Below, piece by piece: positions 4,243 through 55,137 of a DNA stretch of 64,000 nucleotides. The notes under the pieces are model-generated. The model was not told the DNA's origin. It did no database searches and saw nothing but the letters and a program-made list of their open reading frames with translations. The position numbers were made by a program, and so were the translations under genes. This DNA is from an uncultured Alphaproteobacteria bacterium (lineage in GTDB: Bacteria; Pseudomonadota; Alphaproteobacteria; SMXQ01), in assembly GCA_963752345.1 (NCBI GenBank), contig CAVVYA010000002.1, forward strand, positions 62,046 to 126,045, given 5' to 3'. Numbering within the stretch: position 1 is the stretch's first letter; every line of letters begins with the position of its first letter.

Positions 4243-5217
4243 CTCCGGTTGATATGATCACCGCGGCGATATTCTTAGGCGCCCTCGCAACCGTCGCGTC
4301 CGTGGGACTGGTCCTGGGTGGCGGCGCGGGCCGCAAGCAGAAAAAGCGCGTCGATACCGGTACGGCGCCGCTGGTCGGGCTTCTCGCCGGTGGATACAGC
4401 GGGAGCGAGCGTTCTGCGCGGCGAGGACACCAGCCGCCTCGGCAGCATGGCGCTGCGCCTCATGCCGCGCCGCCATATGCTTCGGCACCGGCTCATGAAG
4501 GCGGGACTCAATCTTTCGCCCGGTCAATACGCGCTCGTTAGCGTCGCTCTCGGCGCGACTTGCTGCATCGTTGCGAAGTTCGTCTTCGGCGTTCCCCTCA
4601 TGCTTGCCGGTTTGGGCGCCATCGTCATCGGCATCGGGCTGCCGCATATGGTGGTATCGAACATGATCGGACGCCGCCTGCGTAAGTTCACGAAATTGTT
4701 TCCCGAGGCGATCGATCTCATGGTCCGCGGCATCAAGTCGGGCTTGCCGATCAGCGAAACGATAGGCGCGATCGGGCAGGAGATGATCGATCCCGTCGGC
4801 ATCGAGTTCCGGCGCATCACCGATTCGGTCAAGCTCGGACAGACCCTGGAAGAAGCGCTTTGGGATGCGGCGCAACGTCTGGACACGGCGGAATTCAAGT
4901 TCTTCGTCATCAGCCTGTCGGTGCAGCGCGAAACGGGCGGCAATCTCGCCGAAACGCTCGACAATCTCGGCGATATTCTGCGCCGGCGTCAGCAGATGCA
5001 GCTCAAGATCAAGGCCATGTCATCCGAGGCGAGGGCGAGCGCCTATATCATCGGATCTCTGCCCTTTGTCATGTTCGGCATTCTCATGCTGATGAGTCCG
5101 GATTACGTCATGATTTTATTCACGGACTACCGCGGCATGATCATTACGGGTATCGGCTTGGCAACCATGCTCATGGGCGTGTTTGTCATGGCCAAAATGG
5201 TGAAGTTCGACATATGA
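4239..5217 (+). CDS. tadB: Tad pilus inner-membrane platform protein TadB (GspF-like); apparent +1 frameshift near 4385-4400 in this sequence
   Basis: ATG 4239 overlaps the cpaF stop (ATGA). The N-terminal TM helix is in that frame. The GspF-like remainder (RLMPRRHML...KLFPEAIDLMVRGIKSGLPISETI...) continues in the +1 frame (ORF 4318..5217). The span length is 3n+1. Confidence 0.6.
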
Positions 5218-6191
5218 GCGATCTCGCCAAATACCTGCCGGCAGGCATGAAACCGGAAGACGCTCTCGCTGTCTTGTTCGGGTTGGTGGCCTTTTTCGTC
5301 GTCATCGCCCTTTGGCAGGCGCTCCTGGTGCGCGACCCGATCGTCGTGCGCGCCAAGTCCCTGCTGGCGCGTCGGGCGGAACTCATGGCTCAGTACCTCG
5401 GACACACGCGCCCGCGACAGCGCCCCGCCGCGCGCGGTTTCATGGCCAACATCGTGCTGCGCCTCCGTCTGCTGCAAGGCGAAAAGGCCGGCAGCATGCG
5501 CGAGCGCCTTGCTCAGGCCGGCATTCGTTCGCGCGAGGCATTGATCGCCTATCTCTTTTTTAAGCTCTGCCTTCCCTTGGCGTTCGGCGTGGTGGCGTTA
5601 ATTCTGTTCGAGGGCATGAACGCTTACAATCTGACGTCCTCCAATAAAATTATCGTCTGTATCGGTAGCGTTCTATTTGGCGCGCTCGCGCCGGCGGTCT
5701 GGATCAAGAACAAGATCTCGAAACGTCAGGATGCCATTCGCAAGAGCGTGCCCGACGCGCTCGATTTGCTGGTGATCTGCGTCGAGGCGGGCCTGAGCCT
5801 TGACGCCGCCTTGACGCGTGTCTCTCGCGAGCTCGGGCGCGGCGCCCCTGAACTCGCCGACGAATTCCAATTGACCGCGCTGGAACTGGGGTTCCTCCCG
5901 GAGCGGCGTCAGGCTCTCGACAACCTGAGCAAGCGGGTGACCTTGCCGTCCATTCGCGCGGTGGTCGGTTCGCTGCTGCAGACGGAAAAATACGGCACGC
6001 CGCTGGCGCAATCCTTGCGGGTTCTGGCGGCCGAGTTCCGCAATGAGCGGATGATGCGGGCGGAAGAGAAGGCGGCGCGTCTGCCGGCGATCCTGACCGT
6101 GCCGATGGTGGTGTTTATCCTGCCGACCCTGTTCATCGTGCTGATCGGGCCCGCGATCATCAAGACGATCGACGCGCTTACAAAAATGTAA
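5214..6191 (+). CDS. tadC: Tad pilus inner-membrane platform protein TadC (GspF-like)
   Basis: ATG 5214 overlaps the tadB stop. MSDLAKYLP... has TM helices and the GspF-like motif PDALDLLVICVEAGLSLDAAL. The earlier in-frame start at 4860 would overlap tadB and is rejected. Confidence 0.75.
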   Translation: MSDLAKYLPAGMKPEDALAVLFGLVAFFVVIALWQALLVRDPIVVRAKSLLARRAELMAQYLGHTRPRQRPAARGFMANIVLRLRLLQGEKAGSMRERLAQAGIRSREALIAYLFFKLCLPLAFGVVALILFEGMNAYNLTSSNKIIVCIGSVLFGALAPAVWIKNKISKRQDAIRKSVPDALDLLVICVEAGLSLDAALTRVSRELGRGAPELADEFQLTALELGFLPERRQALDNLSKRVTLPSIRAVVGSLLQTEKYGTPLAQSLRVLAAEFRNERMMRAEEKAARLPAILTVPMVVFILPTLFIVLIGPAIIKTIDALTKM

Positions 6192-6335
6192 GCGGCCTGG
6201 CCGCCCGATCCGAGCGGCAGTCACCCGGCTTCTTCTTCAGAATTTTTGGATGCCGGCCGATCTTGCAGGATTTCCGAACGCCCGCTCGGCGACGGGCGCA
6301 TCCGAATGCCTGCCGGCGCGGCTGGCGGCCGACGG

Positions 6336-7280
6336 TCAATTGGATCCCGAGGCGACCGTGGCCGCCGGTGCGGCCTGGGCCGGCTGCTGGGGCGCGGGCT
6401 CGGAGCTCGGCGTCACGGTGATGCCGAACACCGCCGCGGCGCGCTGCTGCTGCGACATGGCCCGCAGGGTCTCATAATAGGCCAGATTGTTCTGCACCGT
6501 CGGTTCGTCGAAATCGAGCCGGGCGACGCCCGCGGCCTCGGCGAACTTGCCGGAAAGACCATAGACCAGAGCCAGATTCTGGCGATGCCGCGTGGTGCCG
6601 CGGCGTTCGTTCGCAAGCCGGCTGAGGATCTGGATGGCGTCGTCGTACTTGCCGCTGATCGCCAGCGACAGCGCCAGATTGTTGCGGAGATTGGCGTCAT
6701 TGGGCGCGATATCCAGACCGCGGCGATAACTGTCCTGCGCGCTTTGGTAATTCCCGTTCATATCCTGCACGACACCCATGCCGTTATACAGCCGGGGGTC
6801 GTTCTGCAGGGCCAGACCTGCGACAAACTGCTCGAGCGCCAGCTCGGGTTGATTCATAGCCAGGAGAGCATTGCCCAGCCCACGCAACCCATCGACGTTC
6901 TTGGCGTCGAGCTTGAGAGCCTCGCGATAGACCTCCGCCGCTTCGTTGTGAGCGCCCAAGGCGCTCAGCACCTGGCCGAGTTCGACGAGAATATCCGCAC
7001 GGAACGGCGACAGCTCATGCACGCGTTTGTAGACGGTGACGGCGGAGGCGAAATCGCCATTGTCGCGCGTGCTGCGCGCGACGCGCAGCAGGGTGGAGGC
7101 GGGGGAGCCGGGCGCTTCGCCGGTGGCCTCAGCGCTCGCTCTTGCGGCGGCGCTGGCGCTTGGCTCGAGATGGGAATCGGAGGCGCAGGCGGCCAGCCCG
7201 AAGGCCACCGTTGCGAGCAGCGCGGCGCGCAAGGCGCGGCGCGAGACGATAGAGCGGTTCAGCATGATCATCGGCAGCAT
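6336..7280 (-). CDS. TPR-repeat lipoprotein, TadD-like (Flp pilus assembly)
   Basis: ATG at 7280 with AGGAA upstream. Signal peptide and lipobox (LAACASDS). Multiple TPR-like repeats. It lies convergent to the tad operon. Confidence 0.6.
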   Translation of the reverse strand: MLPMIMLNRSIVSRRALRAALLATVAFGLAACASDSHLEPSASAAARASAEATGEAPGSPASTLLRVARSTRDNGDFASAVTVYKRVHELSPFRADILVELGQVLSALGAHNEAAEVYREALKLDAKNVDGLRGLGNALLAMNQPELALEQFVAGLALQNDPRLYNGMGVVQDMNGNYQSAQDSYRRGLDIAPNDANLRNNLALSLAISGKYDDAIQILSRLANERRGTTRHRQNLALVYGLSGKFAEAAGVARLDFDEPTVQNNLAYYETLRAMSQQQRAAAVFGITVTPSSEPAPQQPAQAAPAATVASGSN

Positions 7281-7428
7281 GGGACATTCCTGTGAAAGGA
7301 TTGTCCCAAGGATACGCCGATGCGTCTTACCGTAAGGTAAAGAAACCCTAAAATTTGCTGCGCATTCGGCGCGAAGACGAAGCGTCGGAAGGAGCCGGAG
7401 CCCCTTCCGCAGCGCGTTTTTTCCGCTA

Positions 7429-13206: not shown

Positions 13207-15412
13207 CTATTGCTTGTCTCCTCCCCGCAGAATCACCAGCGCATCGAGCGCGATGCCGCCCTTGCCCTTGGGCAGGGCGACGAACGGGTTGACGTCGATC
13301 GATTCGATGACGTCGCCGAGGTCGAGCGCAATGCGCGACAGCGCCACCAGCGCCTTGACCACGGCCTTGCGGTCATAGGGGCCGGCGCCGCGGTAACCGT
13401 CGAGCAGCTTGGCCGCCTTGGTGCGGCCGATCAGCGCGTCGGCCGCCGCCGCGTCGGTCACCGGCCTGGAGAAGGCGACGTCCTTGTAGAGCTCGAGATT
13501 GACGCCGCCGCTGCCGACCATGACCACCGGGCCGACCTCCGGATCGCGCGTCATGCCGAGCACCAGCTCGATGCCGCCGGTCACCTGCTGGGCGATCAGC
13601 ATGCCCTCGACCGTGGCGCTGCGTTTGTAGCGTCGCACGTTCTTGAGGATCGTGTCGTAGCCCTTGCGCACGGCGGCCGGTGAATCGAGGCCGAGCAGCA
13701 CGGCGCCAGCGTCGGACTTATGGGTGATCTCTTCCGAAATCGCTTTCAATACCACCGGAAAGCCGATGGCCTTGGCCTCGCGCGCCGCGGCGGCCGGGCT
13801 TTCCGCCACCGCTTCCTTCGGCGGCTTGATGCCATAGGCCTTGAGCAGCGCCTTCGACTCGACCTCGGTCAGCGCGCGGGCCGCGCCCGACTGACCGGCG
13901 ATCTTGCGGATGCGCTGGGCGATGGCGGGCGGCTTGCCAGCCGTCGTGCGTGGCGCTTTCGTGGCAGCCGCCTTGCGCGCCGCATAGTCGGTCACATTGC
14001 GAATGGTGCGCAGGGTCTTGTCCGGTTCCTGCAGGAAGGGCAGGTGGGGCAGTTCGGCGTGTAGTTGGCGGCTGTGATCGGACAGGCCGTAGGAGATCAT
14101 GCTGACATAGGAAATCGGCTTGCCGCCCTCGGCGTTCTCCCGCGCCGCGATCTTCTCCACCTCGCGCAGGTTGCTGGTCTTGCGCTCGGCGCCTTCGGGC
14201 GCGCGCGGCAGCTCTTCCTGCAGCAGCACGATATCGATGCCCGGGTCGGCCAGCATGGCCTCGACGCAATCGAGGTAGGCCTGCTGGCTCGACAGCGCCG
14301 CGAAGCCGGAATCGAGCGGGTTGCCGACGATGCTGCCGACGCCGAGGATCCTGGACAGCTTGTCGCGCGTCTGCGGCGCGAGCTCGGCGAACTTGAGGCC
14401 GTTGTTGGACGCCGCGTCGAGCAACAGGCCGCGCAATCCGCCCGAGAAGGTCACCGCGCCGAGCCCGGCGCCCTTGGGCAGCCGCGCATAGACGAAATAC
14501 TCGACCAGTTCGACCACCTCGTCCATGTTGCGCGCGCGCACCACGCCGGCGGCGCCCGCCACCGCGTCGAATGCCTCCATGGCGCCGGCCAAGGCACCCG
14601 TATGGGCCATGGCGGCCGCGCGGCCCTCCGCCGAAGCGCCGAGCTTCATCACCACGACCGGTTTGCCGGCCTCGCGCGCGTCGCGGCACGCGGAAAGGAA
14701 CGCGTCCGCGTCATGGATCGATTCGAGATAGGAGACGATGACCTTGGTCTGCGGGTCGGCGGCGAAATAGCGGATGTAATCGGCATTGGTCAGGCCGGTC
14801 TCGTTGCCGCTGGTGATGATATAGCCGACATCGCAGCCGCGCTCTTCCAGCGTGCGCTTGATCGCCATCAGCAGGCCGCCAGACTGGCCGATGATCGCCA
14901 CGCCGCCCGCGGTCACGCGCTGCGGCCGGTCGTCCGGCATGGTGACCAAGTGGGCGGCGGCCGAGATATTGCCGAGGCAGTTGGGGCCCGACACGGCGAT
15001 GCCGGTTTCCTCGATCACCCGGCGCAGCTCGGCGGCGACCGCCTTGCCTGCGCCGCCCTCGGCCTCCTCGAAGCCCGAGCTGATGATGGTGGCGCTGCGC
15101 GCGCCGGCCTGGGCGGCCTCGCGCAGGCTCGCCGGCACGGCGGCCGCGGGCACCAGCACGACGATGTGGTCGGGCTTCTCCGGCAGGTCGCCATAAGCGC
15201 GATAGCATTTCACGTCCCACACCGTGTCGCGGCCCGGGATTCATCGGGAAGATCTTTCCCGGAAAGCTGTAGCGCTGCAGGTTGCGGAACACCCGCGTGG
15301 TCCACGAGCCCGGCTTGTCGGTGGCGCCGAGGATCACGACGTTGCGCGGGTTGAGCAGCGCCGCGACCTTGTCGTTGTTGTTCTTGGTTGCCGGCTTGTT
15401 GGTTCCCCACAT
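13207..15412 (-). CDS. ADP-forming acyl-CoA synthetase (acetate--CoA ligase [ADP-forming] family); frameshifted by a 1-bp insertion in CCCGGG at 15233-15238 in this sequence
   Basis: The CoA-binding N-terminus (MWGTNKPATKNN...NVVILGATDKPGSWTTRVFRNLQRYSFPGKIFPMNPG) is in one frame (ORF 14711..15571). The rest (DTVWDVKCYRAYGDLP..., succinyl-CoA-ligase-like and ATP-grasp domains) is in ORF 13207..15222. The span length is 3n+1. Confidence 0.7.
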
Positions 15413-15444: not shown

Positions 15445-17177
15445 TCATTGACTGTAGGCGTCCGACGCGCTGCGCCGCGACAGGACGTAGAAGATAAAGG
15501 CGATGACGGTCATCAGGGCGGTCCACGACAGGCCGAGCGCCGCGAGCTCGGTGCCCTGGCCGTTGCTCCACATGTCGAACATGGCGACCGCCATGGTCTG
15601 CGAATTGGGTCCGGCGAGCAGGATCGGCAGCGACAGCACGCGCGCGGCGAGCAGGAAGATGAACAGCCAGCCGGCGAAGATGGCGGGCGCCAGCAGCGGC
15701 GCGATGACGCGGCGCAGCGTCGTCAGGGGCGTGGCGCCGGCGACGCTGGCGGCTTCCTCGAGCTCGTTATGGATCTGCAGCACGCCGGTGTAGCTGTAGC
15801 GCATGCCGTAGGGCAGGTAGCGCACGACGAAGGCGATGATCAGAATCCACACCGTGCCGTAAATCTTGAACGGCAGCGCCAGGGCGACCTGCATGATGGC
15901 GACGCCGAGCACGATGCCCGGGAAGATCAGCGGCGCGCTGGCGAGCTGGTCGAGCACGGCGCCGCCGGGCCGCCGCCGCGCGGCGATCCAGCCGGCAAGC
16001 AGGGTGAGCGCCATGGTGATGGTGGCGGCCGCCGCGGCGACGAACACCGTGTTCCACGCCAGGCCGAAATAGAGGCCGGAGGCGAACACGGCGCGATAGT
16101 TCTCGAACGAGAGCAGCGACAGGGCCTTGACCGAGAAGGTCTGATAGAACGGCAGCAGCGAGGCCCAGACCAGCACCAGGGTCGGCAGGCCGAGCACCAG
16201 CAGGAAATTCACCAGGATGATGGCGCCCGCGAGGAGGCGGCCCTTGCCGAGGTCGAAGGCGCGCGGGCGGAAGCCCTTGCCGGTCACCGTATGGTAGCGC
16301 TCGGCGTGTTTCGAGATGCGGCCGTAGAAATAGAGCAGCACGCCGACGACGACGAGCAGCACGCTGGCGAAGGCGCTGGCATAGCCGAGGTCGGGCGGCA
16401 CGCGGCCGCGGATCTCGAGGAAGATGTCGGTGGTCAGCACATGCACGCGGCCCGGAATGCCGACCAGGGCGGGCACCTCGAACGCCTCGATGGCGCGGAT
16501 GAACACCAGCATGGCGAGCGCCAGCAGGGCCGGCATCGCCATCTTGAAGGTGACGCGGCGGAAGGTCTGCCAGACGCCGGCGCCCGACATGCGCGCGGCT
16601 TCCTCGAGCTCCGGGTTGGCCGCGCGGAAGGTCGCCGAAAGCAGCAGGAAGACGAGGGGCGACCACAGGAAGCCCTCGATCATGATCATGCCGCCCAGGG
16701 AATAGACGTTGAACAGCAGGTCCGTGCTGCCGGTCAGATTGCGGTAGGTGGCATTGAGCGGCCCGGCCCGGCCGAGCAGGAACAGCCAGGCGCTGACATA
16801 GAGCACGTAGGGCGTGCCGAGCGAGATGATGGTGGTGAGATAGGCGAGCGGCTTGAACGGTGCGTTGGTGCGCTCGACCAGCCAGGCGAGCAGCCCGCCG
16901 AACAGCAGCGCCACGACCGCGCTGCCGATGGCGAACAGGACAGGAGTTGATGGCGCTGCTGATCAGCCGCGCGTCTTCCGCCAAGCGCGCGTAGTAGCGT
17001 CCGGTGAAGGGGCCGAGCGAGCCGTCGAGCCTGTTGACGAAGAAGCTGCCCTGGACCAGGAACCACAGCGGCGGGATCACCAGCAATCCGATGGCCAGGA
17101 TGAGCAGCAGCGTGCCGGAGCGCCGGCAGCGGCAGGCGGGCGAGCAGGCCCGGCCGCCGGGTCTGCTCGGCCGCCAT
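15445..17177 (-). CDS. ABC transporter permease, fused double permease domain (FbpB/ThiP-type); two apparent frameshifts (~16921-16936 and ~17110-17125)
   Basis: The body of the protein (about 489 aa) reads continuously in ORF 15445..16914 and shows many TM helices. The segment RLISSAINS is in the neighbouring frame (ORF 15767..17086). The probable ATG at 17175-17177 (MAAEQTRRPGLLARL) is in a third frame. The span length is 3n+2. Confidence 0.55.
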
Positions 17178-17203
17178 GCCGGCGGCGGAGGGAAGCGCTT
17201 GGG

Positions 17204-18278
17204 TCACGCGGGGTTACGCAACGCCGGGCAGGGGATCAGCGGAACAGCTTGGTCGGAGATCTTCTTCCATTCCGGCAGTTTCTCGCCGAGCGTTTCCGGC
17301 GTGAAGACATTGACCTTGAACTTGCCGCCTTCGGGCGTCAGCTCCGGCTCGCGCGGCTTCACATTGGGATGCACCGGCAGATAGTCGGCGGCCTCGAACA
17401 GCTTCTGGCCTTCCTCGGAGACCATGTAGTCGATCAGCAGCTTGCCGGCGTTCGGATGCTGAGCGTCCTTGGTGAGGGAGACGACGCTGAGCGTCGCCGT
17501 CACCGGCTCCATGGCGATCCAGGTCACAGGCGCGCCTTTCTTGGCGCTGATCACCGCGTGATGGTTGAAGATCTGCAGGGCGATGGGGAATTCGCCGGCG
17601 ATCGCCTGGTCGAGCAACTGGCGCGCGCTGACGTCCATGTTGACGATCTTCTGGCCGGCGAGCTTCTTCAGGTAGTCCATGCCCTTCTGCTCGCCCATGG
17701 TGGTCAGCACATTGCCGACGAAGCCCGGGCGCGCCCGAGCTCGACATCGACGAATTCCACGCCAGCTTGCCGCGCCATTTCGGGTCGAGCAGATCCTCGA
17801 AGCTCTTCGGCGCGTCCTTGAGCGGCACCAGGTCCGTGTTGATGCCGGGCGTCATGTAATAGGCGTGGGTCGCGACCCACTGCTGGTCCTTGTCGACGAA
17901 CTGCGGCCCCAGCGCCTTGGCGCCGTCGGGCACGTATTTGGCGACCAGGCCGGCTTCCTTGAGCGGCGGCGTCGCGCTGGTGCCGTCGAACAGGTCGGCC
18001 TGCACCTTGCCGGCGCGCGCCTCGTTGATGATCTTGAGCGCCGTATCGGAGGCATTGGCGCGCACATACTGCACCTTGATGCCGTATTTCTTCTCGAAGT
18101 TGTCGGCGAGCGGGCGGACGAGCTGATTGACGATGACCGTGGTGTACCAGACGACCTCGCCCTCCTTCTTGGCGGCGTCGATCAGCGCCTGGTCGGCCGC
18201 GCCGGCGGGCAGGCTGAAGGCGAGGAGGGTGCCGAAGGCGAGGGCGGATGCGGCAAGCCGCGGGCGTGTGCAAGGCAT
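17204..18278 (-). CDS. ABC transporter periplasmic substrate-binding protein, Fe3+-type (AfuA/FbpA-like); frameshift by a 1-bp insertion at CCCGGG 17724-17729
   Basis: Signal peptide MPCTRPRLAASALAFGTLLAFSLPAGAADQ. EVVWYTT...FEKKYGIKVQYVRANASD is typical of the family. After the frameshift the C-terminal part continues as GFVGNVLTTMGEQKGMDYL... in ORF 17204..17710. Confidence 0.7.
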
Positions 18279-18483: not shown

Positions 18484-18687
18484 ATGCCCATCCCGACGCA
18501 GACCGTGCAGGTCCAGTTGCGCGACTATCAGCTCTCGTTCCTCGAGGAGATGATGGCGAAATACAAGATCCCGGACCAGGGCAAGGCGCTCCGCGTGCTG
18601 CTCGACTACGCGGTGCAGGACGCCGACCTCGACCTGGTGTTCGACAAGAAAAACATGCGCTGCATCGCCTGCGGCGGCGCGGTCTAG
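18484..18687 (+). CDS. Small hypothetical protein, possible ribbon-helix-helix (CopG/antitoxin-like) fold
   Basis: AGGAG RBS, high GC3. The pattern is a beta-strand (TVQVQLRDY) followed by two helices (LSFLEEMMAKYKI, DQGKALRVLLDYA). Confidence 0.5.
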   Translation: MPIPTQTVQVQLRDYQLSFLEEMMAKYKIPDQGKALRVLLDYAVQDADLDLVFDKKNMRCIACGGAV

Positions 18688-18739
18688 GTCGTCACTCGCA
18701 CATGACGGACTGATGCGGGCATCCTCCCCCTCACCCCGA

Positions 18740-18761
18740 CCCTCTCCCGCAAGGGAGAGGG
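18740..18761. repeat. C-rich/G-rich hairpin repeat (CCCTCTCCC-GCAA-GGGAGAGGG), member of a recurring family
   Basis: Perfect 9-bp inverted repeat. It is preceded by tcaccccgaccc, as in the copies at 18993, 23902 and 24021. Confidence 0.6.
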
Positions 18762-18858
18762 TGGCAATTGGACGTGCGGGGCGCAGATCTTGGAAAGCGC
18801 GTCAAAATCGCCGAACATCCGTGGCTCGAACGAGCGACCCCAAGCGCACTATTTTCAC

Positions 18859-18952
18859 CCGTCATGGCCCGATTTGGTCGGGCCATCCACGTTCTTCTTC
18901 TCTCATCCAACAGGAAAGTCGTGGATGGCCCGACCAAATCGGGCCATGACGG
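18859..18952. repeat. Compound REP-like palindromic element: perfect 33-bp inverted repeats separated by 28 bp
   Basis: ccgtcatggcccgatttggtcgggccatccacg ... cgtggatggcccgaccaaatcgggccatgacgg. Each arm also contains its own internal hairpin. Confidence 0.75.
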
Positions 18953-18992
18953 TGAGAGGGGCCAGCGTTCAGCCTTTCACAACCTGAGAACC

Positions 18993-19015
18993 CCCTCCCC
19001 CTCGATGGGGGAGGG
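18993..19015. repeat. C-rich/G-rich hairpin repeat (CCCTCCCCC-TCGA-GGGGGAGGG)
   Basis: Perfect 9-bp inverted repeat of the same family as 18740, 23902 and 24021. Confidence 0.6.
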
Positions 19016-19026
19016 CTGGGGTGGGG

Positions 19027-20107
19027 GTGCTCAGCGGTTCGTCGCAGCATCGCTGCGCTCTTGCTCGCTCTTCATCCGCACAGCGCTTTCGCCGCCGATT
19101 TGCAGCCGCCGTTCGACATGGCCGCGCGGCGCGAGTTGCGCGGCGGTCCGCTCGGCGTCTTCAGTTGCGGCGCGCCGCCCAAGCCGGTGCGCGACCTGCG
19201 GTTCGACGGTTATTACGCGGACCGCGGTTCCGGCTCCAGCGTGGTCGATCAGCAGGCGGAGAAGGCCTATCGCGAGGCGACCCAGGCCATCGCCCAATAC
19301 GAGGCCGCGCTGACGAAAATGTCCGACCGCTACGTGGCGAGCAAGCCGGCGGACGCGCAGCCCGCCGCCTGCGTGCTCGACTGGCTCGCCGAATGGGCGG
19401 CCGCCGGCGCGATGCTGGGCGAGGCGAGCCAGCAGGGCGGCTTCGTGCGCAAATGGGGCTTGGCGCCGGTCTCGGCTTCCTATCTCAAGATCCGCGACGA
19501 ACCCGGCCTCGATGGGGCGAAGAAGCGGGCCGTCGAGCAATGGATCGGGCGCTGGGCGCGCGTCGTGCGCGACGACTACAACCCGACGAAATTGGAAAGC
19601 CGGCGCAACAATCACGTCTATTGGGCGGCCTGGTCGGTCGGGCTCGCCGCCGTCGTGCTCGATGACAGATCGCTGTTCGACTGGTCGATGGAAAAGGCGC
19701 GTATCGGGTTGAAACAGGTCACGCCCGAAGGCACGCTGCCGCTCGAAATGGCGCGCAAGGCGCGTGCCTACCATTACCATGCGTTTTCCGCCGCTCCCTT
19801 GGTGCTGACCGCCGAACTCGCGGCGCGCAACGGCGTCGATCTCTATGCCGACAATGGCGGCGCGCTGCGGCGGCTGGTGACGCGGACGATCGCCGGTTTC
19901 ACCGACGATTCGTATTTCGCCCAGGCGGCCAACGTGAAGCAGGACCGCAGCGGGTCGAGCAAGGGTCCGCACGTCGCGTGGCTCGAAGCGTATTATGCGC
20001 GCACCGGCGATGGCGCGGCCGCGCCGATCATCCGCCAGTTCCGTCCCATGAGCGAGCGTCGGCTCGGCGGCGACATGACGCTGCTCTACGGCGCCGACCT
20101 CCCGTAA
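19027..20107 (+). CDS. Alginate-lyase-family protein (PL5/AlgL-like, NNHxYW motif), secreted; probable 1-bp insertion near 19033-19038 disrupts the signal-peptide region
   Basis: NNHVYWAAWSV hallmark motif. The uninterrupted frame carries a signal peptide (RRSIAALLLALHPHSAFA-AD) but has no in-frame ATG or GTG. A GTG at 19027 with a GGAGG upstream joins that frame after a 1-bp correction. Confidence 0.6.
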
Positions 20108-20923: not shown

Positions 20924-21011
20924 TCGTCATGCCCCGGCTTGTCCGGGGCATCCACGACTTTGTCGGAGGCGAAAAGAACGTGGATGGCCCGACCAGGTCG
21001 GGCCATGACGA
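20924..21011. repeat. Second copy of the compound REP-like palindromic element (tcgtcatg-hairpin-catccacg ... cgtggatg-hairpin-catgacga)
   Basis: Outer 8-mers are complementary to each other. Inner hairpins are gccccggcttgtccggggc and ggcccgaccaggtcgggcc. Same family as 18859-18952. Confidence 0.7.
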
Positions 21012-21049: not shown

Positions 21050-22510
21050 TCACACGAACTCCGGCGTTTCCTGGATGTAATGCTTGGCGAGTTCGGCGCG
21101 CCATTTTTCCATGGTGGCGCGGTTGAGCTCGACCGGCGGCTTCTGGTGCGGCGGCAGCAGCGGCTTGTATTGCGTATCGGCGATCTCTTCCTGGAACACG
21201 CGCTTGGCTTCGGCGACCACCGCCGGGTTCTTCAGGCATTCGACGACCGAGCCCGCGAGCACCTTGGCGCCGGCCACGGCGCCCTTGTGGGCGATCGAGG
21301 TGGCGAGCGCCACGCCGGCCGCCCAGTGATGGGCGTTCACGTTCGGGATGTTGGCCGGATAGTAGAACTTCACCATCGGCACCTTCCATGAGACATCGCC
21401 GGAGTCGTTGGCGGACGGCTTCTGGTCGCCGCCCTTGACCGGCGGAATCGCCGTGCGCAGGCCCTCGACCTTCACCTTGGCCTTGGCCTGCAGCGTGCGC
21501 GCGAGATCGTTCTCTTGCGGGCTCCATTCGGGCGAGCCGACCAGCTCGATGTTGCGCTGGACCAGCTCGGCCAGCGTGCGGTTGCCGCGCACCGGCCAGA
21601 CCGCGCTCATCACGTCGACCTCGACACTGGTGTTGGTCATCATCGCCGCGCCCTCGGCGATCTTCTTCGCCTGGTCGAACAGCTTGCCGGCGAGCTCGGC
21701 GCTCGAGGCGCGGAAATACCACCACACGGACGCGCGGCGCGGGATGACGTTCGGCTGGTCGCCGCCATGGGTGATGACGCGCTGCGCCAGCATGGTCGGC
21801 ATGAAATGCTCGCGGTACTGCGCCATGCCCATGTCCATCAGCACCACGCCGTCGAGCGCGTCGCGGCCTTTCCACGGCGCGACGCCGGCATGCGCCAACT
21901 CGCCATGAAAGGTGAAGGTGGCGGAGATCAGCGCCGACTGGGTCAGGCCGTAGCCGACCTTGAACTCGGCGGCGATGTGATCGTGGAAGGCGATGTCGAC
22001 GTCGTCGAAATAGCCGTCGCGCACGAAATAGGGCCGGCTGATCACCTGCTCCTCGGCCGGCGCGCCGAATACCTTCAGCGTGCCCTGGAAGCCGAACTTG
22101 TCCATCGCGGCTTTGGCGGCGAGCGCGCCGCCGACCAGCACGGCGGCATTGACGTTATGGCCCTCGCAATGGCCCGGCGCGCCGTCGACGATGTGTTTTT
22201 GTTCCGCGACCCCGGCGGCCTGGGAATTGTCCGGGTTGGCGTCGAATTCGGTGTGCAGCGCGATCACCGGCGAGCCCGACCCGTAGGTCGCGCAGAAGCC
22301 GGTCGGAAAGCCGGCGATGCCGCGCTCGACGGAGAAGCCGGCCTTCTCCAGGATGCCCGTCAGCAGCTTGGCGGTCTCGAACTCCTGCATGCCGAGCTCG
22401 GCGAAATGGAAGATGCTGTCGCCGACCAGGCCGATGGCCTTGCCGTTGCGCGCCACATGATCGAAAACGAACTGCTTCTCGGGAGCGAGATTGCCGGTGG
22501 TGTTGTTCAT
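21050..22510 (-). CDS. M20D-family amidohydrolase (AbgB / aminobenzoyl-glutamate utilisation protein B-like)
   Basis: Start MNNTTGNLAPEKQ at 22508-22510. Family-wide similarity (FHFAELGMQE...GHCEGHNVN...). The upstream in-frame extension is R/P/S-rich and rejected. Confidence 0.75.
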   Translation of the reverse strand: MNNTTGNLAPEKQFVFDHVARNGKAIGLVGDSIFHFAELGMQEFETAKLLTGILEKAGFSVERGIAGFPTGFCATYGSGSPVIALHTEFDANPDNSQAAGVAEQKHIVDGAPGHCEGHNVNAAVLVGGALAAKAAMDKFGFQGTLKVFGAPAEEQVISRPYFVRDGYFDDVDIAFHDHIAAEFKVGYGLTQSALISATFTFHGELAHAGVAPWKGRDALDGVVLMDMGMAQYREHFMPTMLAQRVITHGGDQPNVIPRRASVWWYFRASSAELAGKLFDQAKKIAEGAAMMTNTSVEVDVMSAVWPVRGNRTLAELVQRNIELVGSPEWSPQENDLARTLQAKAKVKVEGLRTAIPPVKGGDQKPSANDSGDVSWKVPMVKFYYPANIPNVNAHHWAAGVALATSIAHKGAVAGAKVLAGSVVECLKNPAVVAEAKRVFQEEIADTQYKPLLPPHQKPPVELNRATMEKWRAELAKHYIQETPEFV

Positions 22511-22529
22511 CAGGCTTTGACCTTGTTCA

Positions 22530-23771
22530 TCAGACTTTGATTTTGGTTTTTTCGGCGATGCGGTTGGCCTGAGTGGCGGCGCCGACCGGGCGCACCAGGC
22601 TTGCCGCGCGCTTGGCGTTGGCGCGCGCGGTTCCCGTGTCGGCGGCGCGCGCGAGGGCCACGCCCATGCGGCGCTTGCGGAAGCTCTCCGGCTTGCCGAA
22701 CAGCCGCACGTCGGAATTCGGCACGGCGAGCGCCTCGGCGAGACCCTCGAACACGATGGCCTTCTCGTCGAGTCCGCCATAGATCACGGCACTGGCCGCC
22801 GGCGTGGCGAGCTCGGTCGAGACGGGAAGGCCGAGGATGGCGCGCGCATGCAGCTCGAATTCATTCTGCGTCTGGCTCGCCATCGTCACCATGCCGGTGT
22901 CGTGGGGCCGCGGGCTGACCTCGCTGAACCACACCTCGTCGCCCTTGACGAACAGCTCGACGCCGAAGATGCCGCGGCCGCCGAGCGCCGTGGTGACCTT
23001 CTCGGCGATCTCCTTGGCCTTGGCGAGCGCTCCCTGGGTCATCGGCTGGGGCTGCCAGGATTCGACATAGTCGCCATCGACCTGGACATGGCCGATCGGT
23101 GCGCAGAACGATGTGACGATCTCGCCTTCGGCATTGCGCGAGCGCACGGTGAGCAGCGTGATCTCGAAATCGAAATCGATGAAGCCCTCGACGATGACGC
23201 GCGGCTGGGCGACGCGGCCGCCCTTCAGGGCATAGGTCCAGGCATCGTCGATGGCGCTTTCCGTTTTCACCGTGCTCTGGCCCTTGCCGGATGACGACAT
23301 CACCGGCTTGATCAGACAGGGCAGGCCGATCTTGCGGATGGCCGCCTTCACTTCATCCGCCGATCCGGCGAAGGCATAGGGCGAGGTCTTGAGGCCGAGC
23401 TCCTCGGCGGCGAGCCGGCGGATGCCCTCGCGGTTCATGGTGAGCTGGGCGGCGCGCGCGGTCGGGATAACCTCGGCCAGCCCTTCGCGCTCGATGGCGG
23501 CCAGCGCGTCGGTGGCGATGGCCTCGATCTCCGGCACCACGAGCTGCGGCCTTTCCCGCTCGATCAGCGCGCGCAGCGCCTTGCCGTCGGTCATGTCGAT
23601 GACGTGGGCGCGATGCGCCACCTGATGGCCCGGCGCATCGGCATAGCGGTCGACGGCGATGACCTCGACGCCGTAGCGCTGCAAGGCGATGATGACTTCC
23701 TTGCCGAGCTCGCCCGATCCCAGCAGCATGACGCGGGTGGCGAGGGGGCTGAGCGGCGTGCCGATACGCAT
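22530..23771 (-). CDS. purT: Formate-dependent phosphoribosylglycinamide formyltransferase (PurT)
   Basis: [16 protein letters not shown]...[10 protein letters not shown] closely matches PurT. 413 aa with an ATP-grasp fold. Confidence 0.9.
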
Positions 23772-23886
23772 GGGAAACGATCTTTCTACCTGGTGGGACG
23801 GTCGCCGCCCTAGAATTGCCCGGCGCGCCGCCCGAACTCAACACGAAAGCGAGCGGCCGATGATATGCCACGTGCTAAGTCGCGTC

Positions 23887-23924
23887 TCACCCCCACCCCG
23901 ACCCTCCCCCGTCGAGGGGGAGGG
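23887..23924. repeat. tcacccccaccccgac + CCCTCCCCC-GTCGA-GGGGGAGGG hairpin repeat
   Basis: 9-bp perfect inverted repeat with the conserved C-rich leader. Family member. Confidence 0.6.
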
Positions 23925-24006
23925 ACTAATGACCGCCGGGCGAACCTTGCCTCCGTTTGACGCGAGAGAAATGCATCGCAGCTTGCGGCGAAGGCGGTGT
24001 GCGGTT

Positions 24007-24042
24007 CACCCCCACCCCGACCCTCCCCATCGAGGGGGAGGG
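24007..24042. repeat. tcacccccaccccgac + CCCTCCCC-ATCGA-GGGGGAGGG hairpin repeat
   Basis: Near-identical to the element at 23887-23924. Confidence 0.6.
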
Positions 24043-24120
24043 AGTGACTGGGGGAGGGAGGGAGTGGCTGTGGAGGGGATCGAGTAACGGTGGAGGGGAG
24101 GGAGTGACTGCGGAGGGGGA
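24032..24120. repeat. G-rich imperfect tandem repeats (unit ~GGAGGGGAGGGAGTGACTG), potential G-quadruplex on the + strand
   Basis: At least seven GGG(G) runs. The unit recurs at 24032-24050 and 24092-24110, with degenerate copies between them. Confidence 0.5.
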
Positions 24121-24150
24121 AGGAAGTAGCGCGGAATCAAATTTACTGTT

Positions 24151-24171
24151 CCTCCCCCCTTGTGGGGGAGG
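24151..24171. repeat. Hairpin repeat CCTCCCCC-CTTGT-GGGGGAGG
   Basis: 8-bp perfect inverted repeat of the same family. Confidence 0.55.
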
Positions 24172-24265: not shown

Positions 24266-25335
24266 ATGACGGCAAGCGATATTCTCACCACCGATCGGCT
24301 GCTCGACCATATTTCCACCGCGCCCGCCATCGCCGGGCAGCCCGTCAAGCTCTTCGTGCGCGAAAAAGTCCGCGCCGATATCCGGGAGGCGGGCGATCGG
24401 ATCGTGCTCATGGTGCATGGCGGCTTCTGGCCATCCGACCTGGCGTTCGATTTTCCCCACGAGGATTACAGTTGGATGGACGCCCTGGCGCGGCAGGGCT
24501 GGGATGTGTTTGCCATGGACATGACCGGCTACGGCCGGTCGAGCCGTCCGCTGATGGACGACCCGCGCAATCTCGACCCGGCCCAGCAGCCGTTGCTGGT
24601 GCCACACGTGCTCGCCGCGCCGGCCGCGCCGCGCAATCCGGTCCAACTCGTGACCAGCGACAGCGAATCCGACGACATCGACCGCGTCGTGGATTTCATC
24701 CGGCGTTTACGCGGCGTCGATCGAATTTGCCTGCTCGGCTGGTCGGGCGGCGGCTGCCGCGTCGGCAGCTACACGGCGCGCCATCCGGAGAAGGTGGCGA
24801 AGCTCGTCATCTATGCCTCGTCCAATTATGCGCGCGACGGCGAGAGCAAGCCGCCCCGCCGGCTTCCCGCGCCTGGCTTTCCGATGATCCTGCAAACCAA
24901 GCGCGGCATGGACGAAGAGCGCTGGGGCCCGGCGATCACCTGCGAGCGCCAAGTGGCGCCGGGCATTCAGGATCTGCTTGGCGGCTTTGCATGGCGTCCG
25001 ATCCGGTCAGCGCCGTCTGGGGCGGCTTGCGCGGACCGACGCGCAGCTATTGGGGCTGGAACGGGGCGACCGCCGGCGCCCTGAAGCCAGCCGGCGCTGG
25101 TTCTGATCGGCGCCAACGACGGCTGCTGCCGGCGAACCGCGACCTGTTCGACGACCTCGGGTCCGATCGCAAGGCGCTGGTCGAAATCGCCTGCGCCTCG
25201 CATTTTGCTCAATGGGAAATGCAGCGCAGCCTGCTGCACCGGCTGTCGTTCGATTGGTTGGAGCAAGGCACCGTCAATGGAGAGACCAGCGGCCGGTTTA
25301 ATGCCGACCCGTCGGGATTGCTCAGCCGCCGCTGA
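24266..25335 (+). CDS. Alpha/beta-hydrolase fold protein (esterase/lipase-like, GWSGGG nucleophile elbow); C-terminal third disrupted by at least 2-3 frameshifts in this sequence
   Basis: AAGGGA RBS, then MTASDILTT. VLMVHGG and LLGWSGGG motifs in the first frame (to ~24990). The catalytic His region LVEIACASHFAQWE and the C-terminus are in ORF 24472..25335. A PALVLIGANDG strand appears in a third frame around 25091-25123. Confidence 0.55.
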
Positions 25336-33413: not shown

Positions 33414-34698
33414 TCACGCCTTGCGCGCCAATTCATAGAGCGCGACCGCGGCGGCGGCGGAAACGTTCAGGCTCTCCATGCGCTCCGAGATCGGCAGGCG
33501 CACGAGAATGTCGCAATGGTCGCGCGTCAGCCGGCGCAGGCCTTCGCCCTCCGCGCCGAGCACCAGCGCCACTTTGCCGGTCATGTCGGCGGCGGCCAGC
33601 GTCTGGGGCGCCTGGCCGTCGAGCCCGGCGATCCAGAAGCCCGCCTTCTTCAGCTCCTCGAGCGCGCGGGCGAGATTGATCACACGCACCAGCGGCACGA
33701 TTTCCACCGCGCCCGATGCCGCCTTGACCAGGGCGCCGGTTTCCGGCGGGGCATGGCGGTCGGGCACCAGCACCGCGTCGGCGCCGAAGGCGGCGGCCGA
33801 GCGCAGGATGGCGCCGACATTCTGCGGATCGGTCACCTGGTCGAGCACCAGGACGACGGATTTTTCCGCCTCGGCGGCACGGTCGAGCACATCCTCCAGG
33901 GCGACGTCGGTCAGCGGCTCGGAGAGCAGGGCGGCGCCCTGATGGACGGCACCGGGCGGCAGCACGCCGGCCGATCCCGTCGCGGTTCGACGCCTCCACG
34001 GCGAGCTCGCCCAGAATATTGGCAACACTGGCGTCACCGCGCAGCGTCTCGGCCGCTTCGTCGCTCAGCAGCAGCCGATGATGGCGCCGGCGCGGATTGG
34101 CCAGGGCGGCTTTCACCGCATGCAGGCCATAGAGCCAGACCTGATTGCGCCCCGGCCGGCCCGGGCGGGAGGCCGGCGTGGCACGGGGCGCGGCTGTGGC
34201 GTCCGAGGCGGCGGAACGGCGGTCGGAACCATGGTCAGGCCGCGCTTTGCGCGAAACCGGGGCGGAACGGGCATCCTGACTGAGGGAATTGAAGCGCGGG
34301 GCGGCCTCGCCGTGGCTGGCGTGATCCCTTGCGGCCGGCCTTTTCAAGCGTGGCGCGGCCTCGCCATGGGCCGCACCCGTCCGTGCGGCGGGCTTCGTGA
34401 AGCGGGAGCCGGCTTCCCCGTGGGCCGGATTTCCGCTGTGCCCGTGACGGAACGGTGCCTTGCCGGGCCGCTTGCCGAAGGCCGGCCGGTCGTCGCGCGC
34501 GCCGCCGCCTTCGCCACGGCCGAAGGCCGGCCGGCCGGCGGGTTTGCCGTGGGCGCCTTTGGCCATACGCGGTTTGGGACCGCCCTTGCCATAATACGAA
34601 GGACGGTCGGAGAAAGAGCCGGAGGTTGAAGGGCCCGAACGGTCGGAACGGGAGGACGGGCGGCCGGAAGGGCCGCCGGGGTGCTTGCGCTTGGCCAT
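33414..34698 (-). CDS. rlmB: TrmH-family 23S rRNA (guanosine-2'-O-)-methyltransferase RlmB with ~185-aa Arg/Gly/Lys-rich N-terminal extension; 1-bp frameshift near 33960-33980 in this sequence
   Basis: AAGGA RBS before the ATG at 34698. The SpoU substrate-binding N-domain (VWLYGLHAVKAAL) is in ORF 33433..34698. The catalytic SpoU methylase domain (GAVHQGAALL...VLDQVTDPQNVGAILRSAAAFGA...LNVSAAAAVALYE) is in ORF 33414..34037. The span length is 3n+1. Confidence 0.7.
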
Positions 34699-35228: not shown

Positions 35229-36419
<1,191 letters not shown>

Positions 36420-48973: not shown

Positions 48974-49177
48974 GCGGCCCTCTTTCGGGCCTGGTGGTAG
49001 GCGAACAGCCTAGACGCAGGCCCACGAAAACCTAAGCGAAAGCTTACAGAAGCCCACCCCGGCATGGTCCGGGTAGGCTGACCGAAATGCTCGCAGGCGA
49101 GGGGCCTTGGCCCGCTCGCCACTGTTGCTTTATGCACGAGCCATCGATCAGCGGGCATGGAAGATGAAGGACGTTTG

Positions 49178-49549
49178 ATGCCGACGATCAATCAGCTGAT
49201 CCGCAAGCCGCGGGCGAAAGTGGGTAGCCGCAACAAGGTGCCGGCCCTGCAGGCCTGCCCGCAGAAGCGCGGCGTTTGCACGCGCGTCTACACGACGACG
49301 CCGAAGAAGCCGAACTCGGCGCTCCGCAAGGTCGCCCGCGTGCGTCTTACCAACGGCTTCGAAGTGACGAGCTACATCCCGGGCGAAGGCCATAACCTGC
49401 AAGAACACTCGGTGGTCATGATCCGCGGCGGTCGCGTGAAGGACTTGCCCGGCGTGCGCTATCACATCATCCGCGGCACGCTGGATACCCAGGGCATCGC
49501 CGCTCGCCGCCAGCGCCGTTCGAAATACGGCGCCAAGCGTCCGAAGTAA
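49178..49549 (+). CDS. rpsL: 30S ribosomal protein S12
   Basis: [20 protein letters not shown]... Confidence 0.95.
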
Positions 49550-52158: not shown

Positions 52159-53352
<1,194 letters not shown>

Positions 53353-53716: not shown

Positions 53717-53750
53717 TCGGTTTGGACGAGACCGCAGTTAGGAACGTGCC

Positions 53751-54509
53751 ATGAGAACCGGAGTGATTGCGCAGAAAGTGGGAATGATGCGCGTCTTCGC
53801 TGAAGACGGCGCCGACATCCCCGTGACTGTGCTGAAGATGGACAATTGCCAGGTCGTCGGCGTCAAAACCGCCGAGAAGGACGGCTATACCGCGCTGCAG
53901 CTCGGCGTCGGCAAGGCGAAGGTGAAGAACGTCACCAAGGGCGTGCGCGGCCACTACGCCAAGGCCAAGATCGAGCCGAAGGCCAAGTTGGTCGAGTTCC
54001 GCGTCAGCGACGACGCCGTGCTCGATGTCGGCGCCGAGATCGTCGCCAGCCACTTCGTGGCCGGGCAGAAGGTCGACGTGATCGGCACCAGCAAGGGCAA
54101 GGGTTTTGCCGGCGTCATGAAGCGCCACAATTTCCGCGGCCTGGAAGCCACCCACGGCGTGTCGGTCTCGCACCGCAGCCACGGTTCGACCGGTCAGCGC
54201 CAGGATCCCGGCAAAGTGTTCAAGGGCAAGAAGATGGCCGGCCATCTCGGCCAGGACCGCGTCACCACCCAGAACGTCCAGATCGTGTCGACCGACATCG
54301 AGCGCGGGCTGATTTTCATCCGCGGCGCGGTGCCGGGCGCCAATGGCTCTTACGTGCTCGTCTCGGACGCCGTGAAGAAAGCGGCGCCGAAGGATCTGCC
54401 GTTCCCGGCCGCGCTGCGCAGCGCCGCCGTGGCAGCCGAACCCGCCCCAGAAGCTCCAGTTGGCGACGCGCCCGCTGGCGAACAGCCAGCCGGCGAGCAG
54501 AAGGAGTAA
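53751..54509 (+). CDS. rplC: 50S ribosomal protein L3 (with alphaproteobacterial C-terminal extension)
   Basis: [16 protein letters not shown]..., 252 aa. Confidence 0.93.
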
Positions 54510-54515
54510 GCGGCG

Positions 54516-55137
54516 ATGAAGCTCAACGTCGTCAATTTCAAGAACGAGAACGTCGGCTCGATCGACGTCGCCGACGCTGTGTTCGGCGCGCCGCAGCGCA
54601 AGGACATCCTGGCTCGCGTGGTTCACTGGCAGTTGGCCAAGCGCCGCGCCGGCACCCACAAGACCAAGGGTATCAGCGATATTCAGGGCACGACCAAGAA
54701 GCCGTTCCCGCAGAAGGGCGGCGGCCGCGCCCGCCAGGGCTCGCTGCGCTCGCCGCAGTTCCGCGGCGGCGCCGTGATTTTCGGCCCGGTCGTGCGCGAC
54801 CACGGCTATTCGCTGCCCAAGAAGGTGCGCCGCCTGGCGCTGCGCACCGCGCTGTCGGCCAAGCAGGCCGAAGGCAAGCTGATCATCGTCGACGACACGA
54901 AGAGCGCCGGCGCCAAGACATCGGCCTTCGCTCGTGAACCTGCGCGACAACGGCTGGTCGTCGGTCCTCATCGTCGACGGCGCCGAGCCGAACGGCGATC
55001 TCATCCGCGTCGCGGCGAACATCCCGCATGTGGATGTGCTGCCGAGCCAGGGCGCCAATGTTTACGACATTCTCCGCCGCGACGTTCTGGTCCTGACCAA
55101 GAGCGCGGTCGAGCAGCTGGAGGCCCGCCTGAAATGA
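54516..55137 (+). CDS. rplD: 50S ribosomal protein L4; 1-bp indel near 54926-54936 in this sequence
   Basis: The N-terminal 135 aa is in frame 0. The C-terminus ([37 protein letters not shown]...EQLEARLK) is in ORF 54934..55137. The stop overlaps the rplW ATG (ATGA). The six-frame L4-L23 fusion ORF is an artefact. Confidence 0.85.

Follow-up and report, generated by a model that had tools for sequence, protein, structure and literature searches.

The reading frames of eight protein genes in the window (the whole analysed stretch of 64,000 nucleotides from an uncultured alphaproteobacterium) are disturbed by single-base indels. As judged from sequence, with a probability of roughly 0.93, these frame breaks are not biology but base-calling or consensus errors that became fixed in one public assembly. 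The organism itself almost certainly has intact genes for TadB, an acyl-CoA synthetase, an ABC permease, an ABC binding protein, an alpha/beta hydrolase, RlmB, the second EF-Tu copy (tuf2) and ribosomal protein L4 (rplD). A sequence-only reading of this DNA had already favoured consensus error over pseudogenes, and this view is upheld by indels private to the window, by one-base repairs, by a hit in rplD, by clustering and by aberrant products that occur on one contig. Eight of the nine genes it had listed proved to be affected, no more than about 30 nt away from the place it gave, but its total of at least ten genes was too high. Alignment of the split proteins to orthologues (tblastn), which it had proposed as a check, shows the frame breaks of the acyl-CoA synthetase and ABC genes.

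Inventory and sequence context of the indels

When the DNA was aligned with that of relatives (82-97.5% identical) or with the paralogue tuf1, 15 single-base indels could be placed, 14 of them within the eight protein genes and one in a 5' UTR. The genes tadB, ACS, rlmB and rplD carry one each, the ABC permease and the binding protein two each, and the alpha/beta hydrolase and tuf2 three each. Insertions outnumber deletions by 13:2. The indels are significantly clustered, with 8 of the 14 gaps between them shorter than 600 nt (p<5e-5): six lie in 15.2-18.3 kb, three in 146 nt of the hydrolase gene and four in 52.7-54.9 kb. The coding share (14/15) is close to the window's coding fraction, and coding DNA shows no depletion; the intergenic share (1/15) is roughly that expected from a non-coding fraction that we estimate at about 10-15%, so that nothing points to selection against indels in genes.

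Several sites had been described as homopolymer or CCCGGG runs, but the homopolymer argument is weak. The longest run at any of the 15 sites is 3, and the bases at 15239, 17119, 24975, 25120, 52724/27, 52736 and 54935 are no run extensions; several inserted bases are unlike either neighbour. Homopolymers are not the cause, and the long-homopolymer errors that are classic for nanopore or 454 data are not the pattern seen here. The motif CCCGGG adjoins only 2 of the 15 sites, which is more than chance, though in a post hoc test. Strain-variable positions coincide with an error at only 3-4 of 14 sites.

Acyl-CoA synthetase and ABC transporter genes

The largest group of errors covers three neighbouring genes and one leader:

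13207..15412, minus strand: ADP-forming acyl-CoA synthetase (ACS), split by an extra base at 15239
15445..17207, minus strand: ABC transporter permease with two BPD_transp_1 domains, two 1-nt insertions
17236..18278, minus strand: ABC solute-binding protein, two 1-nt insertions
18282, no strand assigned: non-coding 1-nt insertion (GG to GGG) in the 5' UTR of the binding-protein gene

In the ACS gene the error had been assigned to the CCCGGG at 15233-15238; the extra base adjoins it, directly 5' on the coding strand, and is absent from L081-L083 when their DNA is aligned with the window (GAA[T]CCCGGG). Residues 1-60 of the orthologue map to frame -1 and residues 59-729 to frame -2 (tblastn), and the Pfam CoA_binding_2 match begins at profile position 35. 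The corrected protein has 734 aa vs 730 aa in relatives.

Two sites had likewise been predicted in the permease gene, and DNA alignments (L081-L083 and L122) place insertions at ~16936-16940 and 17119-17121. The protein is spread over three frames (residues 1-27, 29-87 and 88-584 in tblastn) and has 586 aa vs 584 aa after correction. For the binding protein the predicted error at the CCCGGG at 17724-17729 was recovered as an insertion at 17724-17731, but a further one at 17251, four codons ahead of the stop, had been overlooked; both are seen in DNA alignments to L081, L082, L122 and L124. Pfam SBP profiles are divided between two frames, as are residues 1-188 and 187-346 in tblastn. The relatives' protein ends DQLFR*, and the corrected one has 349 aa, as in relatives. 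Also missed before was the insertion at 18282, 4-6 nt upstream of the start codon of the binding protein, where five related contigs (L120-L123, L126) all differ from the window in the same way.

Tad pilus gene, rlmB and hydrolase

Three further genes are affected outside these clusters or by a cluster of their own:

4239..5217, plus strand: tadB (Tad pilus inner-membrane protein), split by an extra G at 4359/4360
24266..25335, plus strand: alpha/beta hydrolase, three 1-nt indels within 146 nt
33414..34698, minus strand: rlmB (23S rRNA Gm2251 methyltransferase), split by an extra C at 33966, CGG[C]GTG

In tadB, where an error had been expected near 4390, the window reads ACC[G]GTA vs ACC-GTG in L086, and this extra G is the sole gap across 2005 nt of 97.5% identity. 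It is the downstream frame that encodes the T2SSF domain; removal of the one base gives a 325-aa ORF whose ATG overlaps the cpaF stop.

The hydrolase gene, for which at least two sites had been proposed, contains three: C deleted at 24975, A inserted at 25084 and A deleted at 25120. All are visible in the alignment to L084 and L085, two independent Logan assemblies with a 95% identical hydrolase protein. After correction the protein has 356 aa vs 354 aa, with 322 identical residues.

The rlmB break, predicted at about 33970, separates TIGR00186 (positions 61-239 in one frame) from SpoU_sub_bind (positions 1-27 in another). Across it orthologues read RDAISRMLPAGAVHQG and the window RDGIGR/VLPPGAVHQG; the insertion is also seen in DNA alignment to L137. 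Corrected RlmB has 427 aa vs 414 aa and is 87% identical in the methylase domain; overall identity is about 60% because of a variable N-terminal extension.

Translation genes

Hits are also found in genes for EF-Tu and a ribosomal protein:

35229..36419, plus strand: tuf1, intact EF-Tu paralogue of 396 aa, used as internal reference
52159..53352, plus strand: tuf2, three 1-nt insertions within 52707-52737
54516..55137, plus strand: rplD (ribosomal protein L4), one extra base at 54931-54936

Outside the garbled patch, tuf1 and tuf2 share 99% DNA identity. The tuf2 ORF is still open (397 aa) with an 11-residue segment garbled. When the three-base deletions that give back an EF-Tu-like peptide were enumerated, removal of the three extra bases gave GDTGEIGEQAILKL. 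All 30 of 30 EF-Tu orthologues have the length of tuf1, and the S10-linked tuf of relatives (L131, L134) is without the insertions. The three insertions described earlier for tuf2 were real features of the deposited sequence, but the segment GEIGEQAIL, which was said to be universally conserved, is not: the equivalent is SDIGRGAIL in tuf1 and SDMGKGAIL in the S10-linked tuf of relatives, and this stretch is variable.

In rplD, an essential gene that is single-copy within its operon, the window reads GC[T]CGTGAAC and relatives GC-CAAGAAC, in accord with the error suspected near 54930. As deposited, the gene runs into rplW as a 313-aa ORF (54516-55457) composed of L4 residues 1-139, garbage and L23. 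Five relatives at 94-97% identity agree against the window on the extra base, and an intact 206-aa L4 is encoded in L127-L130 and L132. The frame switch is seen with 66 ORFs from 80 fetched S10-operon loci, and TIGR03953 positions 1-124 and 127-187 match different frames. Corrected L4 has 206 aa, 200 of them identical to L127, a 97%-identical MAG.

Comparison with relatives and public proteins

Relatives were compared locus by locus: L086 for tadB, L081-L083 for the ACS and ABC genes, L120-L126 for the ABC and alginate-lyase region, L084/L085 for the hydrolase, L137 for rlmB and L127-L136 for the S10-operon region, including the NCBI MAG GCA_964577835.1, in which the rplD base is the sole gap across 5.4 kb of 97% identity. 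The 12 indels outside tuf2 were checked against relatives at 82-97.5% nucleotide identity and the tuf2 triplet against tuf1, two related contigs and 30 orthologues. All 15 are private to the window, and intact genes are present per locus in 5 or more independent related assemblies. Over about 20 kb aligned in all, the 1-nt gaps are without exception window-specific. Natural coding gaps are multiples of three (3, 6 and 12 nt in the L081 alignment), with gaps of 9 and 15 nt in other alignments not all placed relative to gene boundaries.

A one-base edit per site restores a single full-length ORF, free of internal stops and with a length as in relatives; RlmB excepted, the corrected ORFs are 88-97% identical to them. 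Among about 15 billion public proteins, the 397-aa tuf2 product, the 313-aa L4-L23 fusion and a 671-aa ACS occur on one 1.22-Mb NCBI/ENA contig only. This contig is evidently the source of the window, and its size (1,223,142 nt) suggests a long-read genome or MAG.

Alginate-lyase 5' end

18921..20107, plus strand: alginate lyase (AlgL/PL5-like), body intact from 19049, 5' end altered

This gene had been counted among those with a 1-bp error, which may be present but is not demonstrated. From the start codon that is called in five relatives to the body of the gene, the window is longer by a net 68 nt (GTG-to-anchor distance 128 nt vs 60 nt in L120-L123 and L125); as a result, neither GTG 18921 nor ATG 19005 is in frame with the body. 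The body itself has no indels vs L120, L121 and L123, and NCBIfam NF001469 and NF001467 are matched from profile position ~10-15 to the end. A 37-nt repeat within the extra sequence recurs in the window at 23888-23924 and 24007-24042, and the flanks of the insert contain a REP-like palindrome that is also present at 20974-21010. The difference is a separate matter from the 1-nt errors, a 68-nt repeat-containing insertion that is perhaps real.

Whether it reflects real 5' remodelling by a small intergenic repeat, with another start or a lost signal peptide and no sequencing error, is evenly balanced. The exact position of the additional sequence, the recurring core with its REP-like flanks and the intact body all speak for it. 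On the other hand, the first in-frame ATG, GTG or TTG past the insertion is TTG 19061, and a start there would cut the signal peptide; a 1-nt error in the G/C-rich repeat explains the frame offset equally (128 nt = 2 mod 3); and the start in the relatives is a gene-caller's call inside a repeat.

Origin of the frame breaks

Genuine pseudogenes, i.e. real frameshift mutations in a lineage with ongoing gene inactivation, are a very unlikely source of the breaks. An ABC uptake system, a hydrolase and a Tad pilus component are non-essential and can be lost, and since the closest relatives, at 97-97.5% identity, are other strains, very recent real mutations in such genes would be formally possible. 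But inactivation would also have struck the essential rplD and fused L4 to L23; other lesion types (in-frame stops after correction, large deletions, IS elements) are absent, the downstream parts still retain their 88-97% identity, and about 13% of the genes are hit beside perfect rpoB, rpoC, fusA, hydA and hydB. Three indels in 146 nt of the hydrolase gene and three frame-restoring ones in 30 nt of tuf2 do not fit independent mutations, and no indel is shared with a relative, as an inherited lesion would be. Mira, Ochman and Moran are said to have described in 2001 that natural bacterial mutation is deletion-biased; the 13:2 excess of insertions is opposite to this bias and was counted for error.

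Programmed recoding, in which ribosome or RNA polymerase shifts frame and the genes work as written, is extremely improbable. Programmed frameshifts (prfB +1, dnaX -1, IS3 transposases) do occur in bacteria, as does transcriptional slippage in homopolymers, but inspection of the contexts of all 15 sites revealed neither a slippery heptamer nor a CUU-UGA-type context, and no homopolymer reaches 4 bases. The protein is read in a single frame in every relative, and both +1 and -1 events would be required, with three of these inside a 146-nt part of the hydrolase gene. We attach just as little probability to the idea that the deposited bases are right and functional L4, EF-Tu and the others arise by an undescribed non-slippery recoding or by RNA-level indel editing.

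Within the favoured reading of consensus or assembly error, the clusters would mark stretches with low or mixed read support. Each of the three extra bases in tuf2 is the base carried by tuf1 where the copies differ, and the tuf2 consensus may merge reads of this 99%-identical paralogue or of a co-occurring strain. More speculatively, the two errors adjoining CCCGGG could stem from a motif-specific, possibly methylation-related base-calling problem.

Practical meaning

The biology is unaffected, as the cell almost certainly carries intact copies of these genes. What matters is that a public contig of 1.22 Mb has in places about one indel error per 4 kb and that its L4-L23 "fusion", garbled EF-Tu and truncated enzymes are already singleton clusters in large protein collections. 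Pseudogene counts or metabolic inferences will be wrong here unless the genome is polished or annotated with frameshift-aware tools. The case also serves as a reminder that consensus errors of long-read data can lie outside homopolymers (they are clustered and insertion-biased here, with a tuf paralogue-merge signature). Its value lies in curation and its biological interest is low.

Comparison with known systems

The reductive-evolution pseudogenes of Mycobacterium leprae, Sodalis and recent host-restricted pathogens resemble the window in the many frameshifted genes. In those genomes, however, essential translation genes are spared and lesions are mixed (stops, deletions, IS insertions), with deletion bias and sequence decay, whereas in the window an essential ribosomal protein gene is hit, only 1-nt indels occur and the flanks are fully conserved. 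Programmed ribosomal frameshifting, as in prfB, dnaX and IS3-family transposases, is similar in so far as the full product needs a frame change; the window differs in having neither slippery site nor stimulatory context, in shift sites that are unconserved in relatives and in the need for several shifts of both signs within single genes.

The closest likeness is to the consensus-indel "pseudogenes" of long-read or low-coverage assemblies, as they are detected by IDEEL-type truncation tests. Spurious frameshift pseudogenes are driven by platform, assembler and coverage (Cooley & Wright 2024, PMC11017572), and gene calls are broken up by consensus indels of long-read data, above all in MAGs of low coverage (Sereika et al. 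2022, PMC9262707). As in those artefacts, single-base indels fragment conserved genes, are absent from related assemblies, are mended by one-base edits and lie on one very long contig, from which the aberrant proteins were propagated into public protein sets. Unlike them, the sites are not long homopolymers, insertions dominate, the errors form tight clusters instead of an even spread, and one cluster resembles a merge of two paralogous tuf alleles.

Window content and mapping of the frame breaks

The sequence-only reading had ascribed frame breaks in at least ten genes to consensus errors and not to pseudogenes. The count falls to eight genes with 14 coding indels, to which one non-coding indel is added, and the diagnosis itself holds, the indels being private, reversible by one base, clustered and present in an essential gene, rplD. 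The window is an alphaproteobacterial segment (GC 64%) with the following content.

Features within the window
Tad pilus cluster
Minus strand: hydantoinase / acyl-CoA synthetase / ABC uptake operon
AlgL-type lyase, bacterioferritin and purT
Alpha/beta hydrolase and HWE kinase
Several single-domain response regulators and rlmB
25520-26944; 28188-28637; 31428-31895; 32523-32963: a PAS histidine kinase of the HWE type with three response regulators that consist of a receiver domain alone, within 8 kb of one another and all intact
Ribosomal super-operon tuf1-secE-nusG-rplKAJL-rpoBC-rpsLG-fusA-tuf2-S10-spc

The claimed places were examined by a codon-position GC plot and a stop-to-stop ORF map, and in both the reading frame changes on the same strand without an intergenic gap. 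At the broken genes the Pfam and NCBIfam profiles are likewise divided between frames.

Profile matches at broken genes
SBP_bac_6: positions 16-99 and 108-231 in different frames
CoA_binding_2: match begins at profile position 35
rlmB profiles: SpoU_sub_bind 1-27 and TIGR00186 61-239 in different frames
TIGR03953 (L4): 1-124 and 127-187 in different frames

The exact indels were pinned, as had been proposed, by tblastn and DNA alignment to relatives, which were obtained for each disputed locus at 82-97.5% nucleotide identity (one NCBI MAG, otherwise short contigs from metagenomes). The top L3 identity to a genome locus was 75% among the matches listed (80 genome loci). An orthologue ORF scan for further frameshifts in 43.7-64 kb gave rplD alone. 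Ten other ORFs, located in 0-9.2 kb and 21-23.8 kb, were scanned with Pfam and had no split domains; the one exception is a putative M20 peptidase at 21053-22780, whose sole Pfam match is the M20_dimer domain. The stretches ~28-33 kb and 36.4-43.7 kb were assessed by ORF integrity and codon-position GC alone. The S12 ORF (49157-49549) has 130 aa from the first ATG, against 123 aa as annotated in many relatives, a difference that is probably one of start-site choice and not an error.

Indels in the individual genes

Searched by tblastn with the proteins of three related contigs (L081-L083), the operon shows HydA and HydB each in a single frame, whereas the synthetase and the binding protein are spread over two frames apiece and the permease over three. 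DNA alignments show that all these junctions are 1-nt insertions in the window (15239, ~16940, ~17121 and ~17724-31). The binding-protein gene carries an additional 1-nt insertion at 17251 with a stop four codons later, the C-terminus of the relatives being DQLFR*. More closely related contigs (L120-L126, 93-97% identity) show the same insertions and reveal another one at 18282 in the 5' UTR. The operon sites listed previously were correct, and those at 17251 and 18282 had been missed.

The break predicted in rplD is real: 66 ORFs derived from orthologues (fetched loci) change frame at 54900-54960, where the window has 31 nt and the orthologues have 30. Five relatives (94-97% identity) define one extra base at 54931-36, and the 5.4-kb alignment with the NCBI MAG GCA_964577835.1 is gapped at this base alone. 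As deposited, rplD continues into rplW and gives a 313-aa product of L4, garbage and L23. The gene is essential.

The three 1-nt insertions that had been claimed for tuf2, the S10-linked copy, are also present, and against its intact paralogue tuf1 they lie inside 30 nt. They leave the ORF open and alter an 11-residue segment; the length of tuf1 is kept in 30/30 orthologues and in the S10-linked tuf genes of relatives. Removal of the three bases gives GDTGEIGEQAILKL, which matches the family pattern xEIGExxI. GEIGEQAIL is not universally conserved as had been stated, since tuf1 has SDIGRGAIL and the closest relatives SDMGKGAIL. Every extra base is the one that tuf1 has at a site of divergence between the two alleles, and the tuf2 consensus may have been made from mixed tuf1-type and tuf2-type reads, which would have introduced the extra bases. 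Leaving aside a 40-nt patch and a few isolated changes elsewhere, tuf1 (35229-36419) and tuf2 (52159-53352) are 99% identical. In two related contigs (L131, L134) the S10-linked tuf bears a tuf1-like patch (SDMGKGAIL), and the putative GEIGEQAIL allele of tuf2 was found in no relative examined.

The remaining breaks were confirmed as well. In tadB an extra G at 4359/60 is the sole gap against the related contig L086 (97.5% identity, 2005 nt). The alpha/beta hydrolase has a C deleted at 24975, an A inserted at 25084 and an A deleted at 25120, as seen against two Logan assemblies that are independent of each other and whose protein is 95% identical; these two 1-nt deletions rule out that all errors are insertions. 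In rlmB the DNA of the related contig L137 gives CGG[C]GTG at 33966, and orthologues have RDAISRMLPAGAVHQG where the window reads RDGIGR, a frame change and VLPPGAVHQG. RlmB (33966-34698, minus strand) has a basic, Pro/Gly/Ala-rich N-terminal extension of ~180-230 aa that also occurs, with varying length, in relatives (P0247 with 414 aa, P0248 with 394 aa).

Alginate lyase and intergenic repeats

The alginate lyase had been listed as needing a 1-bp correction, but its body shows no break and the difference is of another kind, a net 68-nt insertion at the 5' end in comparison with five relatives. The extra sequence contains a 37-nt repeat with two further copies within the window. The spacing measures 128 nt here and 60 nt in relatives, which leaves the upstream GTG and ATG out of frame with the lyase body. 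This may be a genuine repeat insertion, or a 1-nt error may be hidden within the G/C-rich repeat.

Small intergenic repeat families occur at 18700-19048, 20974-21010 and 23848-24277, and the ~390 nt at the last of these places are absent from the Logan assemblies L084 and L085.

Repeat elements
Arms 18859-18891 and 18920-18952, further copy 20974-21010: palindromic REP-like element
18993-19029, 23888-23924, 24007-24042: G/C-rich 37-nt unit CCCCCTCCCCCTCGATGGGGGAGGG...

Between the divergently transcribed binding-protein and lyase genes lies a gene for a 67-aa protein of unknown function (18484-18687, plus strand; C-terminal CIACGGAV), found with identical sequence on at least eight Logan metagenome contigs whose DNA is 4-7% off the window.

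Sequence context of the errors

Homopolymer slips were rejected as the cause, and the argument made from them earlier is weak, as the longest run is 3. Nor do the errors generally fall at strain-polymorphic positions: of 14 sites only 3-4 have an increased local mismatch density and six have no local mismatches, and local polymorphism accounts for a few error sites only. Two of the 15 sites lie at most 6 nt from one of just 21 CCCGGG sites (p=0.0035, for a motif picked post hoc), and a motif-linked base-calling problem is possible but unproven. CCCGGG itself is rarer than expected, with 21 sites (e.g. 15233, 17724, 35474, 52404) versus 35 +/- 6 in dinucleotide-preserving shuffles, 100/100 of which had at least 21; such scarcity could be a faint sign that the lineage has a restriction-modification system of the SmaI/XmaI type.

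Artefact or biology

Judged from sequence comparison, the frame breaks are very probably (probability about 0.93) an assembly artefact and no biological feature, because the indels are private, reversible, clustered and insertion-rich, do not spare coding DNA and break the essential rplD, and because the aberrant products are found on one contig only. All 15 indels are private to the window sequence, the independent related assemblies being intact throughout. One-base edits restore single ORFs as long as those of relatives, most of them 88-97% identical; corrected L4 matches in 200/206 residues, and in corrected RlmB the variable N-terminal extension lowers the overall identity to ~60%. Natural gaps in coding DNA among the relatives are multiples of three. 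Six indels fall in 15.2-18.3 kb and none in the adjoining 5.8 kb, three in a 146-nt stretch of the hydrolase gene, and four in 52.7-54.9 kb beside 8.4 kb of flawless rpoBC (clustering p<5e-5 by simulation). Natural bacterial indel mutation is biased to deletion, and the ratio of 13 insertions to 2 deletions is the reverse.

Real pseudogenisation of the affected genes is highly improbable: neither this lesion spectrum nor the clustering fits it, no lesion recurs in any relative, and an essential gene would be broken. Programmed frameshifting at the break sites, by which the genes would still be read through, is more improbable still, as slippery sites are absent, the break positions are not conserved and one gene would require both +1 and -1 shifts.

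Among ~15 billion proteins, a single contig (1,223,142 nt, NCBI/ENA) is the sole source of the garbled tuf2 product, of the fused L4-L23 and of the synthetase of 671 aa, and the normal proteins of the window also fall on it; the errors would therefore be confined to the deposited assembly. L3, tuf1, tuf2 and L2 are present in the protein collection, all on this 1.22-Mb contig. It lies outside the gene-position index, so that the lack of a match in exact searches of this index with L3, tuf1, tuf2, L2 and L23 (107 aa) is silent on independent support. Singleton public proteins derive from the broken genes at 54516-55457 (313 aa), 52159-53352 (397 aa) and 13207-15222 (671 aa), and the 313-aa fusion has been placed within an L23 cluster.

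An artefact of this kind is of slight scientific interest and of use in curation. Platform, assembler and coverage give rise to such pseudogenes (PMC11017572), and polishing is needed for low-coverage long-read MAGs (PMC9262707).
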